A stretch of DNA of 52,493 nt from a phage (GCA_017676125.1 GCA_017676125.1_4893.1), one strand, 5' to 3'. Positions 44,865-52,014 are shown, counted from the stretch's first letter. A program made the numbers and translations. Notes: generated from the sequence alone by a model not told the origin.

Positions 44865-45033
44865 GCTTATTTTACAAACTGATTAATATTTAAACTATAA
44901 TTAAATATATGGACCCTAAGAGTATGATTTTATTACTCTTTTACAAATCATAATATATGGGCTCCCTATAAAAAGATTAAGGGGGTAATAAGGGGATCCA
45001 AGTACCGGATAAAAGGGGGTATATATTTATTTT

Positions 45034-45053
45034 ATTATTATTATTATTATTAT
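45034..45053. repeat. (ATT)n microsatellite in AT-rich intergenic region
   Basis: ATTATTATTATTATTATTAT run, about six to seven units. Confidence 0.8.
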
Positions 45054-45210
45054 ATATTATTAATTATATTAGAAGTAATAAAAACAGCTACTTAGAGGCG
45101 TCTATATGTATGATCCGGTTTATCTCTTTATTAATATCAGAACCGGATGAAAAAAATTTACGCTGGCGAAAAAAATAAAAAAGCCGGATTGATAAATAAA
45201 TCTGTAGACG

Positions 45211-45239
45211 TTTACACTATAAAAAAGATGTGTTACAAT
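45211..45239 (+). promoter_or_regulatory. sigma70-like promoter TTTACA-N17-TACAAT
   Basis: -35 TTTACA 45211-45216, -10 TACAAT 45234-45239, upstream of resolvase-like gene. Confidence 0.5.
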
Positions 45240-45293
45240 ATTTATCAATGTTGCTGGTTACCAAATCTTTGGATTATATACGAGGCTGAATAA

Positions 45294-45725
45294 ATGGTAA
45301 ATATTAGAGCGAAGGGGCAGAACTTTGAGCGTAAAATGGCTAAGAAGTTCAATAGCTCGTTCGGATTAACTGTTGAGCGCAATCTTCAACAGTCTATTAA
45401 TGGCGGGGATGACTTGCTTGGTGTACCGTTTTTCAGCGTTGAACTGAAGAAGCACAATACCAAGTCTATCGGAACATGGTGGAGACAGTGTGCGGCATCG
45501 GCAAAGGCTCAGAACAAGATGCCGGTACTGATATACGAACTACCAAGAAAACAGCCTACCGTGGTGATGAATAAAGCTGATGTGATTGACTGTTTTCCAA
45601 GTGGCACGACTTTTAACGAGGCATCGAATCGCCTCTTTGTGGGTCTAGTAGAATTAACATGGGAACAATTTTGCCGGGTCTACAACTATTACGTTGCGCC
45701 CGGCACTCAATATCACGTCAATTAA
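45294..45725 (+). CDS. Holliday junction resolvase-like PD-(D/E)XK endonuclease (Hjc-like, putative)
   Basis: 143 aa; N-terminal KGQNFERK...GGDDLLGV...FSVELKK pattern (G.xFER, D, ExK) resembles archaeal-type Hjc resolvases. Confidence 0.45.
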   Translation: MVNIRAKGQNFERKMAKKFNSSFGLTVERNLQQSINGGDDLLGVPFFSVELKKHNTKSIGTWWRQCAASAKAQNKMPVLIYELPRKQPTVVMNKADVIDCFPSGTTFNEASNRLFVGLVELTWEQFCRVYNYYVAPGTQYHVN

Positions 45726-45907
45726 TCTTGTTTCAGCTCGTCACAAATGACACGCTGATTTTTGGCAGGGATAATACCAAGATTTAGCAGGGTGTATGGA
45801 CTATCAGCGACGCATTGTTCAACGGTAGTCCATTCAGGTTTGGATTCAACAATTTCGTAACTACAATCATGAGTAGCCACACATGTTGCCAGGATTAAGC
45901 CAATCAC
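45722..45907 (-). CDS. hypothetical small protein, hydrophobic N-terminus
   Basis: 61 aa ORF, GTG start overlapping upstream stop (GTGA); convergent with resolvase gene. Confidence 0.4.
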   Translation of the reverse strand: MIGLILATCVATHDCSYEIVESKPEWTTVEQCVADSPYTLLNLGIIPAKNQRVICDELKQD

Positions 45908-46083
45908 AAGTAATCACCTTCAACCAGGAACTCAAACAGCTGGTTGTAAACGTTGCAACCTTTAGCGAAAGAGCTTTCAGCAGGTTTACCGTCGCGGACA
46001 ATCATCATGTACTCACCGCCATGGATGTCCACCCAGTATTGCATGCCACCTTTGACCGGGTTACGTTGTAAGAATTTAAACAT
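45904..46083 (-). CDS. hypothetical small protein (59 aa, below ORF-track cutoff)
   Basis: ATG at 46083 overlaps stop of upstream gene (TAATG); translated by eye. Confidence 0.35.
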   Translation of the reverse strand: MFKFLQRNPVKGGMQYWVDIHGGEYMMIVRDGKPAESSFAKGCNVYNQLFEFLVEGDYL

Positions 46084-46328
46084 TATTTGCTCCTTATTCC
46101 AAGTTTATTCAATAACCAAATTGTCATGTCAACCCATGTTAACGGTACAGTTTTCGGGGGTTGATAATTCCAGCAGCTTGCAGTTCTTTGTATTTCTGCT
46201 TGGCGCCGCTCCGCTTCGCGTAATACCGCATCGTCAGAAGTGCCGGCAGAAAAAAGATCGGTAACACCAGATAAATCGCGTTGATTAACACGTCGAGCAA
46301 TGTCATATAAGTCATCCTTAGAAAACAT
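46083..46328 (-). CDS. hypothetical protein
   Basis: 81 aa ORF in coupled minus-strand chain. Confidence 0.45.
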   Translation of the reverse strand: MFSKDDLYDIARRVNQRDLSGVTDLFSAGTSDDAVLREAERRQAEIQRTASCWNYQPPKTVPLTWVDMTIWLLNKLGIRSK

Positions 46329-46534
46329 AAGCCAATACCATAAGAATTATCATAAAGACCACAACCAGCTTCCTCATTGCCCGACCTTCAGCATATGCAG
46401 GATTCACAACAGAATACTCAACAACATGTTTACAGCGGACCATAAGGCCTCCACTTGTGGGTTAATTCAATCATGAGGACTTTCATCAAATCCTCATTGT
46501 TGAATCAATCACCAGCGTCAGGACTTGACTAATA

Positions 46535-46738
46535 TCACTCTATCATTACCTGAACTACTATTATACACTCTTTATTGAAGCGAGTAAACACTTTTCCACC
46601 ATTAGTGCGTTTAGCCCCAGATTTTAGAGCTGACTGGCACCAGATATGCCACTCCTCAACTGTCAAGAATTTTTGCTCAGCTTTGGGTGGCAATCCATGG
46701 GCAAGGTCTACCGTCGTAAATTTGACTAGTGGCATCAC
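46535..46738 (-). CDS. hypothetical protein
   Basis: 67 aa ORF; start overlaps upstream stop. Confidence 0.45.
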   Translation of the reverse strand: MMPLVKFTTVDLAHGLPPKAEQKFLTVEEWHIWCQSALKSGAKRTNGGKVFTRFNKECIIVVQVMIE

Positions 46739-47124
46739 TTGACCTCAAATTTTGACTCGTCGTATTCCGGATCAGTCACGTCCCGGGTCGCACAATTTTT
46801 GATTGCTTCCCAGTAACGTTGGGCATCATCGCCATCGGCATAAACCGTCCAGTAGCCGTAACCACCTTCAAATCTGTCCCAGGCTTGTTCCCAGACTTTG
46901 CCATCTTCCAGCTTGTACCAAGTTGGACGACTGTCAAACTCACGAATTGGATGGTACCCCAACAAGGGATTCATCAGGTCAATAATGTCTTCCCGACTAA
47001 TCTCCTGGTTCTCCCACAACACCGTCATGAATTGCTCAAACTTGAAGGCGTTTGGCAGAACTTTGAGTACTTTACCGTCACAATATACGGTATAGGTACC
47101 ATCTTCGCATTTTGCACTGTACAT
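46735..47124 (-). CDS. hypothetical acidic Trp/Tyr-rich protein
   Basis: 129 aa ORF preceded by conserved leader GAAATTATTCACAATCAACAGGAGAGAGAAAC. Confidence 0.5.
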   Translation of the reverse strand: MYSAKCEDGTYTVYCDGKVLKVLPNAFKFEQFMTVLWENQEISREDIIDLMNPLLGYHPIREFDSRPTWYKLEDGKVWEQAWDRFEGGYGYWTVYADGDDAQRYWEAIKNCATRDVTDPEYDESKFEVK

Positions 47125-47197
47125 GTTTCTCTCTCCTGTTGATTGTGAATAATTTCAAAAATGAACTATCACAACTTTGGACAGTTCATTGTTGAAA

Positions 47198-47371
47198 CTA
47201 TGCTAACTTTGTTGCGATCTGAATTGTCAGCCGGAAATCTTCCATCAAGTTATCAAACTCTTTGGAACCACCAACAGCATCAGATATTTGATCTTTCACA
47301 ATTTGGGCATTTGATTCCAGTAATTCAATCAGGTGCGCCAATTCGTCTTCAGTCAATTTCAGATCTTTCAT
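47198..47371 (-). CDS. hypothetical small acidic protein
   Basis: ATG at 47371 overlaps upstream stop (ATGA); 57 aa, acidic helical. Confidence 0.45.
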   Translation of the reverse strand: MKDLKLTEDELAHLIELLESNAQIVKDQISDAVGGSKEFDNLMEDFRLTIQIATKLA

Positions 47372-47625
47372 AATGCATCCACCCAAGCCATAACTTTTGC
47401 CAGTCTTACAACGTCTTCATGGTCCCGCTCGCCATCAGAAAATTCGCTGGCGATGATACCCATAATTGACGCCAGATTCATGTTGATGATGTATGCGTGT
47501 TGGCGCACTTCATCAATTCCTGAATCTATCACCAGTTCCGCAAATTCTTGTGAACCTTCATCCCACTCAGCCCAATACTGCTCAGCATAAAAGTCCAGTT
47601 CTTTTTTCATCTCAATGTCAGTCAT
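47368..47625 (-). CDS. hypothetical small acidic protein
   Basis: 85 aa, strongly net-negative (many D/E). Confidence 0.5.
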   Translation of the reverse strand: MTDIEMKKELDFYAEQYWAEWDEGSQEFAELVIDSGIDEVRQHAYIINMNLASIMGIIASEFSDGERDHEDVVRLAKVMAWVDAL

Positions 47626-47630
47626 TTTGA

Positions 47631-47789
47631 TTACTCCTCAGAACCTGAAAATTTGTCGTCAATGGCTTCAACAATATAATCAAGAGTTGAAGTGTGAGAA
47701 CTATCAGAAAAAGTGCCCATCTTCTCTAACTCAATCATCATATCACGCAAGGCCATCGCCTGGTCTTTGGTCAGTTTGATTTTAAGCAT
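47631..47789 (-). CDS. hypothetical small acidic protein
   Basis: ATG at 47789 preceded by conserved leader (second copy); 52 aa. Confidence 0.45.
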   Translation of the reverse strand: MLKIKLTKDQAMALRDMMIELEKMGTFSDSSHTSTLDYIVEAIDDKFSGSEE

Positions 47790-47853
47790 GTTTCTCTCCT
47801 GTTGATTGCGAATAACTTTCATTGATGGCACTACTTGAGCGCCATCTCAAAAA

Positions 47854-48423
47854 TTACTCTTTAGTTTCTTGTGCTTCAGTTTCAGGTTTTACTTCAGTAT
47901 CAGGTTTTTTGCCAGTTACTGATTTGCCTTCGGTCACTTTACCAGATTTTACATCATTACGGTAGTATGACATATATGACTGGATAACACGTTTTGCCTT
48001 AATATCATCCGCTTCCATTCCGCAAGCTTTCATCGCATCAGCGAGCGCCAATTTGGAATCTTCCTTATCCATCAGGTTGTAATCTTTGAACACCAGATAG
48101 CAGGTATCTTTAGTTGACGGACCAGATGACGATTTGCGAGAGCCACCAGCGGATGCTCGTGTTGTCGCAACTTTGACTTCTTCAACTTCCAGTTGGTTCA
48201 GCTCGTCAAACAAAGCCTTCACCAGCACTTCTTTGGAGTCTTTGACGCTTACAGTACTTTCATCATTAAGCGACTTAATCATCTTAATGATCTGGTTGTT
48301 GGCAAAGTACTGAAGACTATCCATCTGCACTACAATAGTGCCAAGACTTTCAGTAGTCAGACCAGATTTCACAGACTCGACAGAAAAAGCGGAAGTCAGG
48401 TAAACGTAGTTGATAGTTGTCAT
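47854..48423 (-). CDS. hypothetical protein
   Basis: ATG at 48423 with GAGGA RBS (track ORF extends to 48492); 189 aa, Lys/Glu-rich C-terminus. Confidence 0.5.
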   Translation of the reverse strand: MTTINYVYLTSAFSVESVKSGLTTESLGTIVVQMDSLQYFANNQIIKMIKSLNDESTVSVKDSKEVLVKALFDELNQLEVEEVKVATTRASAGGSRKSSSGPSTKDTCYLVFKDYNLMDKEDSKLALADAMKACGMEADDIKAKRVIQSYMSYYRNDVKSGKVTEGKSVTGKKPDTEVKPETEAQETKE

Positions 48424-48518
48424 TTGATGTATCCTCGTTGATAGAATTTTTGATATGTGCCAATCCTTGGCAAGTAAGTCCAAACATGACAACTTTTGTC
48501 AAGTTGTCATGATTGAAA

Positions 48519-48821
48519 TCACTTCGCGCTTGCGTTTTCAACGGCTTGTACAACTTTCAACAAATGCCTGAAGTCATCATGATAAATTTCATTAAAGCCA
48601 TCTGCCGCAAAGTTTTCGCCAATTAAGATCAGTCTTTCGCGGACCAAGTCAATCAATAGTTTATTGTCAGTTATTTCCGCACCTGTAACAAGTTCAACAA
48701 ATAATTGCTGTACGTTATCATAACGGATGTTGCTTTCAATACACACTTGGCGCATGTCTTCAACTATTGACATGATTGTGACTTGCATTTCTACGTCAGA
48801 AGTGATGCTATTCAGTTTCAT
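48519..48821 (-). CDS. hypothetical acidic protein, first gene of leftward early operon
   Basis: 100 aa ORF adjacent to divergent control region. Confidence 0.5.
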   Translation of the reverse strand: MKLNSITSDVEMQVTIMSIVEDMRQVCIESNIRYDNVQQLFVELVTGAEITDNKLLIDLVRERLILIGENFAADGFNEIYHDDFRHLLKVVQAVENASAK

Positions 48822-49194
48822 AATAGTTACCTTTGTACTAGTTTCCAGGTGTGACTACTGTTACCAATAGTCACTAGTTGAAACTACTACTTGTGTTACT
48901 ATCAACAAGAAACATGTTACCAAATTGTTAAAGAGCAAAAGGTACCATTGACATCTACCAGATGTACCTGTTGACTGGTTAAGTACTACCTACCTAATCT
49001 AAACCATACCAATATCCTTTAGACCAGTTAGACTGGTCAATCAGTCATCACATTCAATAAATATATAATAGACCAATCGCTATTGATTGTACATAAAAGA
49101 ATTGCAAGTTTATGCAAGTTTTTAGAAATGATAATCACTTGCGATTGAGAGTGGTTCTCATATGCAATTGATATAGTTTCACATGTAATTATTC

Positions 49195-49440
49195 AATCCA
49201 AAATGGTCGGCAGGGGTTATAATAACATAGGGGTGCCACTTAAAGGAGCCGGCGAAATTATTTCTAAAAATATAATTTCAATCTGAATTATAGACGCTTT
49301 GTACTATACCGGCCGAAGTAGTTCACACGGTAATTGTACCAATCATAATAGTTACCAGAGTAATCATTTCAATTGAAATAGGTGCGGCGGGGGGGTAATT
49401 TCGCAGGGGTGCTACCTGCCAGGAGCCAGCAAAATTTTTT
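49195..49440. repeat. two ~75-bp imperfect direct repeats in divergent control region
   Basis: 49195-49270 and 49365-49440 share TCAAT..AAA.GG.GGC.GGGG.TAAT...AGGGGTGC.AC.T...AGGAGCC.GC.AAATT.TTT skeleton. Confidence 0.6.
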
Positions 49441-49669
49441 ATTTTTTCTCTATTTTCTCCTTATCAGGACCAATCATCATCAGATTGATACAACAGGAGC
49501 TAACCTTTTGCTTAACACAATAATAAGTGAAGCCCCTCTAAAATTTTTTTATATTTTTCGGAAATTGTGTAGACACTCACTAAAAAGTGGTGTACTTTCT
49601 CTCCTCCACGCGCTATCATTAATGTGAATCATCAAACGGCCTCACGGTCTCCTACTTGTGGGTAACATT

Positions 49670-50155
49670 ATGAAAATTGTTCAATTAGAGCCATATCCGC
49701 CTCAATTGGCTATCGTTTGCAGCGAAAAAGAGCACGAAGAGCTCCAAAAACTGATGGATTTGCCTGATTTTGGCAACTGGAATGACCGAGAAACGCGTAA
49801 TGCATCTACCTTTACATTCTCTCGCGTTAACTACCCATACCTGTTAATCGTCGTCGAGCTGTACCACCCGGACGACCTGAAGTACAACACCATTTCCCAC
49901 GAAGGCATTCACGTAATGTCGTCGCTGATGAACTATGTTGGCCTTAAATACGACCCAGAAAACGATGAATGGTACGCATATCAGCATGATTTCATCGTAA
50001 ATGCCATTTGTAAGGCCCATGACGAGTACCTGGAGCGCCAAAAAGCGCCAAAAACTAAGCCAAAAATTGAAACAGGTAACCATCCTGCTATACTGCCACA
50101 AGACGTTATGAACTCGCTTTTGACTGACACTACTGGGGACTTTTTAGGTGATTAA
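49670..50155 (+). CDS. hypothetical protein with HExxH motif (possible small metallopeptidase-like)
   Basis: ATG at 49670 (track ORF starts at GTG 49658); contains HEGIH; first gene of rightward operon. Confidence 0.4.
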   Translation: MKIVQLEPYPPQLAIVCSEKEHEELQKLMDLPDFGNWNDRETRNASTFTFSRVNYPYLLIVVELYHPDDLKYNTISHEGIHVMSSLMNYVGLKYDPENDEWYAYQHDFIVNAICKAHDEYLERQKAPKTKPKIETGNHPAILPQDVMNSLLTDTTGDFLGD

Positions 50156-50822
50156 TATTATCTTTGCAATGGGCCAAAATGGGGAATTCGGGTTATCTCC
50201 GGAGTTTATGAAGCATCAGGTTGACTCGTGCAAGACCATGGAAGAGGTTCGTGCACTTCCTAAATCGGGTCTACCCTGGAAATGTCAGTCAGACATGCTC
50301 TTTTTCAGGACTATGACTAATTCAATTGCGACAGAACCAGGCTATAATGCATATCAGCAACTACGTGGACAATTCCCAAATGACCAGTTGCGAAACATGA
50401 TAGCAGATGTAACGGTAAAAATGGTCGGGCATAGTGTATTGTTAGCCGGTCGTAATACGTATATGACTATGAGTCTGCCTATGTCAGCCCACAGAATACT
50501 GCTGCCGGTATCTCGCCAGATTATGGCTTCAGAAGGCTACAATAATCTGGGTGAGATGGCAGCAGACCTTGAATCCAGGGGTACTGACGTCTGGATTGTA
50601 GGTGGAGCCGAGTTGATACTTTCGGCCCTTGAAGAACACGCAAAAGACTTACTCCGTATCGACAACATGTTTATCAGTACAATCAAGCAGTCAGGTCCAA
50701 GTGATATTTTAATGGATCGTAGCAAATTAATGATGTACATTGATAGCGACTTCACTTATAATGATGAATATGTTGATAACAAACAAGTGCTGATACAACG
50801 GTACAGGAGTTTACACAAATGA
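50148..50822 (+). CDS. folA: dihydrofolate reductase-like protein
   Basis: 224 aa; N-terminal MINIIFAMGQNGEFG, LPWK..D..FFRTMT, GRNTY, VWIVGGAEL segments align by eye with DHFR conserved blocks, with insertions. Confidence 0.6.
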   Translation: MINIIFAMGQNGEFGLSPEFMKHQVDSCKTMEEVRALPKSGLPWKCQSDMLFFRTMTNSIATEPGYNAYQQLRGQFPNDQLRNMIADVTVKMVGHSVLLAGRNTYMTMSLPMSAHRILLPVSRQIMASEGYNNLGEMAADLESRGTDVWIVGGAELILSALEEHAKDLLRIDNMFISTIKQSGPSDILMDRSKLMMYIDSDFTYNDEYVDNKQVLIQRYRSLHK

Positions 50823-51325
50823 ACATCATAATCGAGGGGCCCGACAATGCTGGTAAATCTACACTTATTGAGTTCCTTAAATCTCGTACTGGCCGCAGCG
50901 TTATTCATAATACTGTTGATAAGGACCCCGAATCGGTCATGGCTAAACAGGCCAAAGAAAACGCGTTGGAAGGCAATTGCATTTATGACCGTAGCGCTGT
51001 TATATCTGAGTATATCTATTGCCTGGTTCTTCAACGTACGCCTGTCATCAATATTAATGTATCACATGTAGCAGATATGTGTGACAACGCCATCGTTATC
51101 TTTTGTATGCCGCCTGTTGAAAAGGTACTGGCAACTACTAAAGACGAAATGCCTGGTGTTGTGGAAAATCTTGAGGCGTTATATAATCAGTATGACAACC
51201 TCATTGACGAGCTGGTTATGATGAGTAAGCAGTTCTTCATTTACGACTGGACTGTTGAAGAAGACGGTCCTGAAGCAGCTCTCGAATATATCAATGAACG
51301 TATTAATAAGGAGTGGAATAAATGA
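50819..51325 (+). CDS. P-loop deoxynucleoside monophosphate kinase (thymidylate kinase-like)
   Basis: 168 aa; N-terminal IIIEGPDNAGKSTL P-loop typical of dTMP/dNMP kinases; clustered with DHFR-like gene. Confidence 0.6.
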   Translation: MNIIIEGPDNAGKSTLIEFLKSRTGRSVIHNTVDKDPESVMAKQAKENALEGNCIYDRSAVISEYIYCLVLQRTPVININVSHVADMCDNAIVIFCMPPVEKVLATTKDEMPGVVENLEALYNQYDNLIDELVMMSKQFFIYDWTVEEDGPEAALEYINERINKEWNK

Positions 51326-52014
51326 GCCCAGTATACAATACCTCAATCACGCTGTCAGCAACCGTAGGGGACGTCAACAAGACTGTTACTGTGGGTTCAA
51401 CTAACCCGAACCTGTCAGGCGAAGACCTGCTGCGCCTGGCCAAACGTGCTCTTGAAGATAACGAAGTGACTGGTACTGAAGGCGTCAGCATCGAAATTAA
51501 CGTCGAAGGATGTCCGCACAGCATCAGTATTGCGACCTCTGACAATGAAACTGAAAAGTTCAACGATGAGATGGAATATCGTACTGGTAAGATGTTCAGC
51601 AGTGCGCTAAACTGGTACTTGTGCAAGGCCTCTGGTTATACTGGTGCTCCTATGTCAGACCGCATGTTAGCTGATATGTCAGCACGTGAAATAGCTAAAG
51701 GCTGGGCGCATGTACAGATGCTGCAGGAGCATATCTGCAAGCTGGAAAGCTGCAATAAAGACGCGTCTGAGCTTATTACTGCCTATAAGCGACAGATTAA
51801 CGACCTGCAGCAACTGATGGGCAAACGTGCTGAAGAGTACGAGGCTGAGATTCGTAGCCTTAACGGTACAGCTGTTGCTAATAACCGTGCTTTCAGCGAA
51901 GAGCGTAAAGCGCTTATTGCCCAGCGTGACGCTGAAAAACGTCGTGCAGACGACCTGGCAGACCGTCTTAACTTTATCCGTAAGCATATGGATGCTATGG
52001 AAGGGGTAATCTGA
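51322..52014 (+). CDS. hypothetical protein
   Basis: 230 aa ORF, coupled start; C-terminal coiled-coil-like region. Confidence 0.5.
   Translation: MSPVYNTSITLSATVGDVNKTVTVGSTNPNLSGEDLLRLAKRALEDNEVTGTEGVSIEINVEGCPHSISIATSDNETEKFNDEMEYRTGKMFSSALNWYLCKASGYTGAPMSDRMLADMSAREIAKGWAHVQMLQEHICKLESCNKDASELITAYKRQINDLQQLMGKRAEEYEAEIRSLNGTAVANNRAFSEERKALIAQRDAEKRRADDLADRLNFIRKHMDAMEGVI

Follow-up and report, generated by a model that had tools for sequence, protein, structure and literature searches.

We analysed a phage DNA of 52,493 nucleotides (GCA_017676125.1; "the window" below means this whole stretch at its full length) around a minus-strand array of small genes at 45722-48821, which we call the island. 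In our judgement the island is probably the leftward early, host-takeover operon of a Rosemountvirus, lying wholly inside a direct terminal repeat (DTR) of about 4.3 kb. An earlier interpretation made from the DNA alone (the sequence-only reading) had proposed an early, host-takeover module at this place, and its context supports that proposal: the position within the DTR, the promoter region facing the array, a homologue of one of its genes that is toxic, and the mosaic gene content are all consistent with it.

Mapping of the terminal repeat

We performed a megablast search with region 45000-49700, yielding matches to 62 phage records, nearly all of them Rosemountvirus myoviruses of about 52.5 kb, with Salmonella phage yarpen (96.5% identity, 100% coverage) and E. 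coli phage vB_EcoM_swi3 (97.9% identity, 98% coverage) as the best matches. By these matches the window is a complete Rosemountvirus genome holding a single copy of any terminal redundancy. For the Rosemountvirus fHy-Eco03 (57,011 bp), PhageTerm called direct terminal repeats of 3,699 bp with 11 genes inside (PMC8145870). The repeat in its record (MW602648) holds a small forward open reading frame (ORF), a resolvase gene and nine small reverse-strand genes, and ends about 600 nt upstream of the last gene. Phage vB_SalM_Sz (PP236111, 57,020 bp; Sz below) is 94-97% identical to the window, and its first 4,263 bp are 100% identical to its right end. We then transferred both repeats to the window by alignment: their left boundaries map to about 45165-45166 and their right boundaries fall in the same alignment column, at 49427. 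Inside this interval are the resolvase gene, the whole island and that stretch of the control region in which the island-facing promoter-like sites are located; the rightward Ku-like gene has its promoter region beyond the interval. By homology, the island and its promoter region would therefore sit inside a 4,263-bp DTR, of which the window contains one collapsed copy and the packaged genome would carry one at each end.

With the repeat at both ends, an intact operon with host-type promoters would be contained in the first 4.3 kb to enter the cell, so that either leading end would bring a complete promoter-plus-operon copy. Host RNA polymerase would in that case transcribe the operon among the earliest of the phage DNA, with gene dosage doubled, and its products, a mixture of small proteins specific to this clade, would condition the cell. 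This takeover set would include the dual-coding locus g3a/g3b, which has a growth-arresting homologue, two tiny membrane peptides (g3b and g4) and the conserved two-domain protein g10, which may bind nucleic acid; the small acidic, probably helical products g6-g9 and g11 would most likely act by binding host proteins, and some of the accessory genes may inhibit host defences. The early timing, the repeat-first entry and the host-protein targets are elements that we infer.

Several points weigh against this interpretation. The repeat was placed by homology to relatives, and the term "early" derives from position and from promoter-like motifs, of which the control region has a modest excess (23, versus 15.3 +/- 3.8 in shuffled sequences). 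No island protein is homologous to the takeover proteins of T5 or SPO1, and we know of no two-step DNA entry in this phage group. Eight of the nine repeat genes of fHy-Eco03 that were screened for toxicity were not clearly toxic, one of them being borderline (PMC8145870), which argues against classical host shut-off as a general property of the gene set.

The repeat, the genes that it encloses and its control region are as follows (window coordinates, strand, description; aa, amino acids; pI, isoelectric point):

45165-49427, strand not applicable: inferred DTR, 4,263 bp, mapped from Sz and fHy-Eco03
45294-45725, plus: RusA-like Holliday-junction resolvase (phrog_244, E = 3e-23), likewise annotated in yarpen and KE24
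45722-45907, minus: g1, 61 aa, pI 4.5, phrog_32337; hydrophobic N-terminus, four Cys
45904-46083, minus: g2, 59 aa, phrog_34345; extremely conserved
46083-46328, minus: g3a, 81 aa; 67% identity over 81 aa to the toxic Gp05 of fHy-Eco03, at the same repeat position
46139-46306, minus: g3b, 55-aa membrane peptide in the +1 frame inside g3a, phrog_28081; maximum Kyte-Doolittle 2.5
46318-46443, minus: g4, 41 aa, C-terminal membrane anchor, phrog_10979 ("membrane protein"); Kyte-Doolittle 3.2; in all relatives
46535-46735, minus: g5, 66 aa, pI 9.1, core gene, phrog_35966; in all relatives at 36-100% identity, omega 0.02-0.48
46735-47124, minus: g6, 129 aa, net charge -11, Trp/Tyr-rich, variable, phrog_37772
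47198-47371, minus: g7, 57 aa, acidic, phrog_29626; small paralogous family
47368-47625, minus: g8, 85 aa, the most acidic (net -14, pI 4.10), predicted helical; a 43%-identical homologue in S144
47631-47789, minus: g9, 52 aa, acidic, phrog_35350; Rosemountvirus only
47854-48423, minus: g10, 189 aa, two-domain core protein; family also in some T4-like phages
48519-48821, minus: g11, 100 aa, acidic, a strict orphan occupying a variable promoter-proximal slot; no PHROG
48822-49427, minus: repeat-internal control region with promoter-like sites, GTAACNATTAC repeats and two GC-rich conserved elements

Gene content and selection

The sequence-only reading had placed a minus-strand array of about ten genes between a resolvase-like gene and a control region, and this layout was recovered: eleven ORFs of 41-189 aa (g1 to g11), with a twelfth (g3b) overprinted inside g3a, lie between the RusA-like gene and a non-coding control region of 836 nt beyond g11 (48822-49657). 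In the records of yarpen and KE24 the same region is labelled with a RusA-like resolvase and, after it, roughly twelve proteins called "hypothetical" or "membrane". To assess selection, the island ORFs were compared at codon level with their relatives in yarpen, KE24, Sz, SE13, fHy-Eco03, S144, SOI901 and one IMG/VR contig, resulting in omega values mostly between 0.02 and 0.3; by this measure all eleven are real genes under purifying selection. For g1, omega was 0.04-0.10 against SE13, fHy-Eco03 and S144, and g2 differs from its fHy-Eco03 homologue by 13 synonymous changes while the protein remains the same (100% identity).

All ORFs were searched against PHROGs, which placed ten of them in tiny families with no assigned function and g11 in none. 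Pfam was scanned at E <= 1 with ten ORFs (g4 and g9 left out), and NCBIfam and PADLOC with the same ten except that g9 took the place of g3b. Neither Pfam nor NCBIfam returned any match, in agreement with the earlier statement that the proteins have no recognisable enzymatic motifs, and PADLOC likewise returned none. Sequence and profile searches of PDB chains (g2, g3a, g5, g6, g8, g10 and g11, plus family profiles of g7 and g10) gave chance-level matches only, and scanning the complete window for Rfam families and tRNAs returned nothing. IMG/VR yielded just six related loci; the most distant match (L015) was dropped because it is an unrelated high-GC phage.

We do not claim g1 as a lipoprotein on its LATC motif, since just eight residues precede the Cys, too few for a signal peptide. 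The resolvase gene and g1 are convergent, their stop codons sharing 4 nt at 45722-45725 with no terminator between them, so that convergent transcripts would overlap.

The toxic locus

In a toxicity screen in E. coli that covered nine genes from the fHy-Eco03 repeat, g05 alone was clearly toxic (next-generation sequencing ratio 0.003, plating 0.16, growth arrest upon arabinose induction), and Gp05 was described there as one 81-aa protein, with a RecG-like model that is weak (PMC8145870). The island gene g3a is its direct homologue; what differs in our description is the embedded second conserved 55-aa membrane ORF, g3b, which is the one annotated by most depositors and bears a TMHMM note in S144 (ORF72). 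In five genomes with about 75% DNA identity (the window, fHy-Eco03, S144, AEV23 and SOI901), neither frame is interrupted, and the starts and stops of both are conserved. Within the overlap, substitutions gather at codon position 1 of g3a, which is position 3 of g3b, and omega was 0.36-0.88 for g3b and 0.4-2.2 for g3a; in the 54 nt of g3a past the g3b stop, omega in the g3a frame was 0.05-0.37, a strong constraint. A conserved Shine-Dalgarno sequence (AAGGA or GAGGAG) stands 7-8 nt upstream of g3b. Synonymous resampling of g3b left the g3a frame open in 1.2% of trials (P = 0.012), and the converse resampling in 18%. With both frames open, each having its own start signals and its own purifying selection, the locus has the properties of a dual-coding pair, and g3a and g3b are probably both translated.

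The cloned "g05" fragment holds both ORFs, so the toxic product could be either, and the presence of the second ORF undercuts the weak RecG-based model (PMC8145870); a RecG-linked mechanism for the published toxic gene may be a misassignment. At the Gp05 locus, the two ORFs may form an overprinted pair of which the 55-aa membrane peptide, and not the 81-aa protein, kills or conditions the cell.

The remaining genes of that screen cover part of the island. Homologues of g1 (g03), g2 (g04), g4 (g06), g5 and the C-terminal half of g6 (g09) were non-toxic, as was a promoter-proximal small ORF, and the homologue of island g7 (fHy-Eco03 g10) was borderline in the plating assay only (0.46) (PMC8145870). 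No counterpart of g8, g9 or g11 exists in fHy-Eco03, which puts these three genes outside the screen. The fHy-Eco03 homologue of island g10, gp07, was detected as a protein by liquid chromatography-tandem mass spectrometry (LC-MS/MS); since 48 of 81 fHy-Eco03 proteins were called "virion-associated" (PMC8145870), we read this detection as proof of expression and not of a structural role.

Protein charge and a possible role against host defences

The proteins had been described as strongly acidic, and several of them as helical. Six of the eleven do have a pI below 5 (g1 4.48, g6 4.47, g7 4.42, g8 4.10, g9 4.59, g11 4.54), compared with 13 of 65 elsewhere in the genome (Fisher p = 0.024, the comparison set being approximate genes picked by a greedy longest-ORF rule), but g8 alone is extreme. 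It carries a net charge of -14 over 85 aa, or -0.16 per residue, compared with -0.08 to -0.11 for g6, g7, g9 and g11; g2 and g10 are near neutral, and g3b, g4 and g5 are basic (pI 9.1-10.2), the first two being hydrophobic single-pass membrane peptides (Kyte-Doolittle; TMHMM notes in the S144 record). DNA mimics have a net charge of about -0.15 to -0.25 per residue, spread along the surface, and acidity combined with helicity is equally typical of proteins that bind RNA polymerase or sigma factors, such as T7 Gp2 and T4 AsiA. On helicity, a single-sequence AlphaFold2 model of g8 shows three helices, but with low confidence (pLDDT 63, pTM 0.36), too poor for fold comparison.

The sequence-only reading had also seen in this composition a candidate anti-defence module. 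In its full form, with the island chiefly devoted to counter-defence and one or more of the acidic g8, g11, g6, g7 and g9 acting as DNA mimics or as other direct inhibitors of restriction-modification, BREX (bacteriophage exclusion), CBASS (cyclic-oligonucleotide-based antiphage signalling) or the like, made first so that the entering DNA is shielded, we think this unlikely. The strict orphans with patchy distribution would fit it, and so would the slot of g11: this gene occurs in 20 of 50,697 phage records, all of them from the clade, compared with the 62 that carry the island, and its promoter-proximal place in the presumed first-expressed region resembles the position of T7 gene 0.3. The charge of g8 is within the range of Ugi, and most fHy-Eco03 homologues are non-toxic, as is usual for anti-defence proteins. 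In the T5/BF23 literature, too, unassigned pre-early genes are attributed to "host takeover and anti-immunity" (PMC10644984). Set against this, searches of Pfam, NCBIfam, PADLOC and PDB sequences linked no island protein to Ocr, ArdA, Arn, Ugi, an anti-CRISPR or another solved protein, nor to any DNA-mimic family; g8 alone comes near the charge density of DNA mimics, and its model is of low confidence; and three of the products are basic or membrane peptides. Confident homology to ordinary host-takeover or replication proteins, which the earlier interpretation had named as evidence against itself, was looked for and did not appear, leaving the anti-defence idea neither supported nor refuted from that side.

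Restriction may already be dealt with by other means, as nine of ten restriction enzymes fail to cut fHy-Eco03 DNA (PMC8145870), a result that suggests base modification as this relative's chief means of evading restriction. The first rightward gene outside the repeat (49658-50155, plus) encodes a Ku/Gam-like DNA-end-binding protein in the S144 annotation (phrog_1365) and is followed at 50148-52014 (plus) by a dihydrofolate reductase (DHFR)-like gene and a thymidylate kinase gene; together with the enzyme resistance of fHy-Eco03, these genes suggest a modified-base pathway.

Under the preferred early host-takeover interpretation, single accessory genes may still act on defences. The best candidates for founding members of a new defence-inhibitor family are the highly acidic g8, whose relatives among 5.8 billion proteins all belong to the clade, and g11, which is promoter-proximal and variably present, forms one 90% cluster in the same set and has no relatives outside the clade. 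The looser proposition, under which either one or more of the island orphans inhibits a defence or the membrane peptide is the true toxic product of the Gp05 locus, is a tentative one that we hold to be possible and somewhat doubtful.

Hairpins and cassette structure

The array had been called tightly packed and translationally coupled. This holds inside five blocks, where neighbouring genes overlap by 1-11 nt, but not between the blocks, which are separated by gaps of 64-95 nt, each with a strong hairpin:

46468-46502, minus: hairpin type A in an intergenic gap, of the CAACAATGA...TCATGATTG family
47156-47194, minus: hairpin type B in an intergenic gap
47824-47846, minus: fourth hairpin in an intergenic gap, of different sequence (GATGGCGCT...AGTGCCATC)
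48481-48515, minus: hairpin type C in an intergenic gap

Three of the four gaps thus hold one hairpin family, defined by a common basal stem (CAACAATGA/TCATGATTG) found nowhere else in the 52.5-kb window and by three types of upper stem, unrelated in sequence, in which pairing is preserved. The family is kept in S144, ZCSE2, Sz, KE24 and SE13, and in Loughboroughviruses it is conserved at the corresponding junctions. As a guess by analogy, the hairpins may be RNase III-type processing sites like those of the T7 early operon; alternatively, they could be recombination hot-spots for cassette exchange. We dropped an assignment of the hairpins to the island-sense strand from their G.U wobbles, because the basal stem contains a C x A mismatch, which on the opposite strand would become a wobble pair. 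Both g6 and g9 are preceded by copies (47130-47155 and 47793-47818, 92% identical) of a 26-nt direct repeat that takes in the ribosome-binding site; this repeat is a candidate cassette-junction sequence.

Gene content was then compared across relatives. The genes g3a/b, g4, g5 and g10, and usually g1, occur in every relative examined, while g2, g6, g7, g8, g9 and g11 are present or absent depending on the relative. The slot of g11 is taken by other small ORFs in Sz, S144, fHy-Eco03 and SOI901; g10 is promoter-proximal in the window and S144 and adjoins g4 in fHy-Eco03, SOI901 and the IMG/VR contig; g6 was found in 51 of the 50,697 phage records, all of them clade members, and only its C-terminal half is present in fHy-Eco03 (g09). 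By alignment, extra paralogous copies of g7 lie in KE24 and in the promoter-proximal slot of Sz. Paralogy between g7 and g9, suggested by a common N-terminal KLTxD motif, was rejected (hhalign probability 0.9%). On these sequence comparisons the operon consists of hairpin-separated cassettes that are reshuffled or replaced among relatives.

Such reshuffling could also mean that the island has no single function and is a hyperplastic collection of unrelated, dispensable orphans (superinfection-exclusion membrane peptides, a regulator, remnants of shuffled cassettes), kept since the terminal repeat tolerates insertions. The different gene order and content of close relatives (the position of g10, the g7 paralogues) and the heterogeneity of the products (membrane, basic, acidic) would fit, and the hairpin and ribosome-binding-site repeats at cassette borders could mediate recombination, as described for the hyperplastic regions of T4. 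We nevertheless find it quite improbable, because the five-gene core is kept across Rosemountvirus, Loughboroughvirus, fHy-Eco03, Erwinia phage SOI901 and a metagenomic contig, because purifying selection is strong (g2 above all), and because one product, Gp05, has a clear cellular effect.

In KE24, an extra gene annotated as "anti-repressor Ant" (1813-2319) lies just upstream of the resolvase gene inside the repeat, as it does in SPLA9/12, which is another sign that the repeat tolerates insertions.

Control region and repeat boundaries

Two candidate sigma-70 promoters face the island, TGTACA-17-TATTAT at 49093-49065 and TTGAAA-16-TATTAT at 49372-49345. In an alignment of five genomes that are about 75% identical overall, the control region has a mean column identity of 77% with long invariant blocks, and is thereby conserved to the level of coding DNA.

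Two GC-rich elements (49205-49262 and 49375-49430) are related to each other, both reading AGGGGTGCYAC...AGGAGCCRGC followed by an A/T run, and are kept in all five genomes; the second stops exactly at the repeat boundary, 49427. We rejected them as structured RNAs, with folding z-scores of -0.5 to +0.7 against shuffled sequences; as they fold no better than these, they are probably sites acting at the DNA level, perhaps in terminus formation. A copy of the motif GAAAAAATAAAAAA is found close to each boundary: within the repeat on the left (45169-45185) and, in inverted orientation, beyond it on the right (49431-49450). Units resembling GTAACNATTAC are repeated at 49300-49372, and a 28-nt repeat (48818-48845 and 49343-49370) contains the ribosome-binding site and ATG of g11, its upstream copy opening an ORF of just 7 codons; both kinds of repeat could be operator or iteron-like sites.

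Comparison with known early regions

In T5 and BF23, the pre-early genes lie in a duplicated terminal repeat as two inversely oriented units with a long non-coding region at the inner border, and their functions are mostly unassigned (PMC10644984). The island resembles this arrangement in its mostly small, unassigned genes placed, by homology to relatives, inside a long DTR of the T5 first-step-transfer type, in two oppositely oriented units, in the long conserved non-coding region at the inner border of the repeat, and in that host RNA polymerase is presumed to transcribe these genes ahead of the remaining genome; at least one T5/BF23 product harms the host, and one island product has a toxic homologue. 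It differs in the length of the repeat (4.3 kb versus 9.7 kb), in the lack of A1, A2 and dmp homologues (PHROG and Pfam searches of the island), in its units converging and not diverging, and in belonging to a myovirus, T5 and BF23 being siphoviruses; nor is there evidence of two-step DNA injection or of nicks for this phage.

The host-takeover module of the Bacillus phage SPO1 comprises 24 small genes in a 13-kb terminal redundancy. Like the island, it is a dense array of orphan genes placed in the terminally redundant DNA of a myovirus; its early promoters are strong and of host type, as those of the island would be, and some of its products are toxic when made alone, as is a homologue of one island product. 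Host and lineage are unrelated, however, with no sequence similarity, and the island is smaller (11 genes) and its promoters are predicted. In T7, the class I early operon (genes 0.3-1.3) opens with Ocr, and RNase III sites separate its genes. The island likewise has a predicted early polycistronic operon at the genome end, an acidic promoter-proximal protein and stable intergenic hairpins, but g11 and g8 have no similarity to Ocr and the hairpins are predicted ones. In the hyperplastic regions of T4-type phages, small orphan genes are flanked by repeated regulatory stem-loops. The cassette-like orphans of the island are similarly bounded by hairpin repeats and reshuffled, and the g10 family occurs in such a region; unlike there, no early promoter is evident next to each hairpin, and the element family is different.

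Rosemountviruses are used in Salmonella and E. coli biocontrol cocktails while their presumed first-expressed genes are all "hypothetical". Placement in the terminal repeat turns these into a concrete and cheap experimental target of eleven small genes, one of which is toxic in a relative. The gene set and the position of the repeat were already public, in database records and one paper; our analysis adds the mapping of the boundaries onto this genome, the dual-coding locus, the hairpin-bounded cassettes and the wider kinship of g10. Should a strict orphan prove to be a defence inhibitor, it would represent a new family; otherwise the island would be a familiar terminal-repeat takeover cassette.

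The g10 family

The only island gene with wider kin is g10, for which an exhaustive HMMER search gave 5 representative clusters and tblastn found homologues in the T4-like phages VR7/SP18, Acinetobacter 133/ZZ1 and Morganella MP1. The family thereby links early regions of two unrelated myovirus groups. In an AlphaFold model built on a 23-sequence alignment (pLDDT 75), positions 1-85 form an N-terminal beta-plus-helix domain and positions 103-160 a C-terminal domain of three helices, while the linker between them and the charged tail are disordered; Foldseek found nothing for this model in PDB and just its own uncharacterised family in BFVD. We considered the class of nucleic-acid binders that combine a HeH (Rho-N/SAP-like) domain with a homeodomain-like helix-turn-helix, and the family profile matched the homeodomain recognition helix weakly (E = 0.11), over the invariant motif RVVQSYxSxYR. 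These hints are individually weak and converge on g10 being possibly a small nucleic-acid-binding protein. In T4-like phages of Escherichia, Shigella, Acinetobacter and Morganella, members of the family often stand as tandem paralogues in the e-segB/tRNA hyperplastic region, as in Escherichia phage EAWsc9 (3501-4476).

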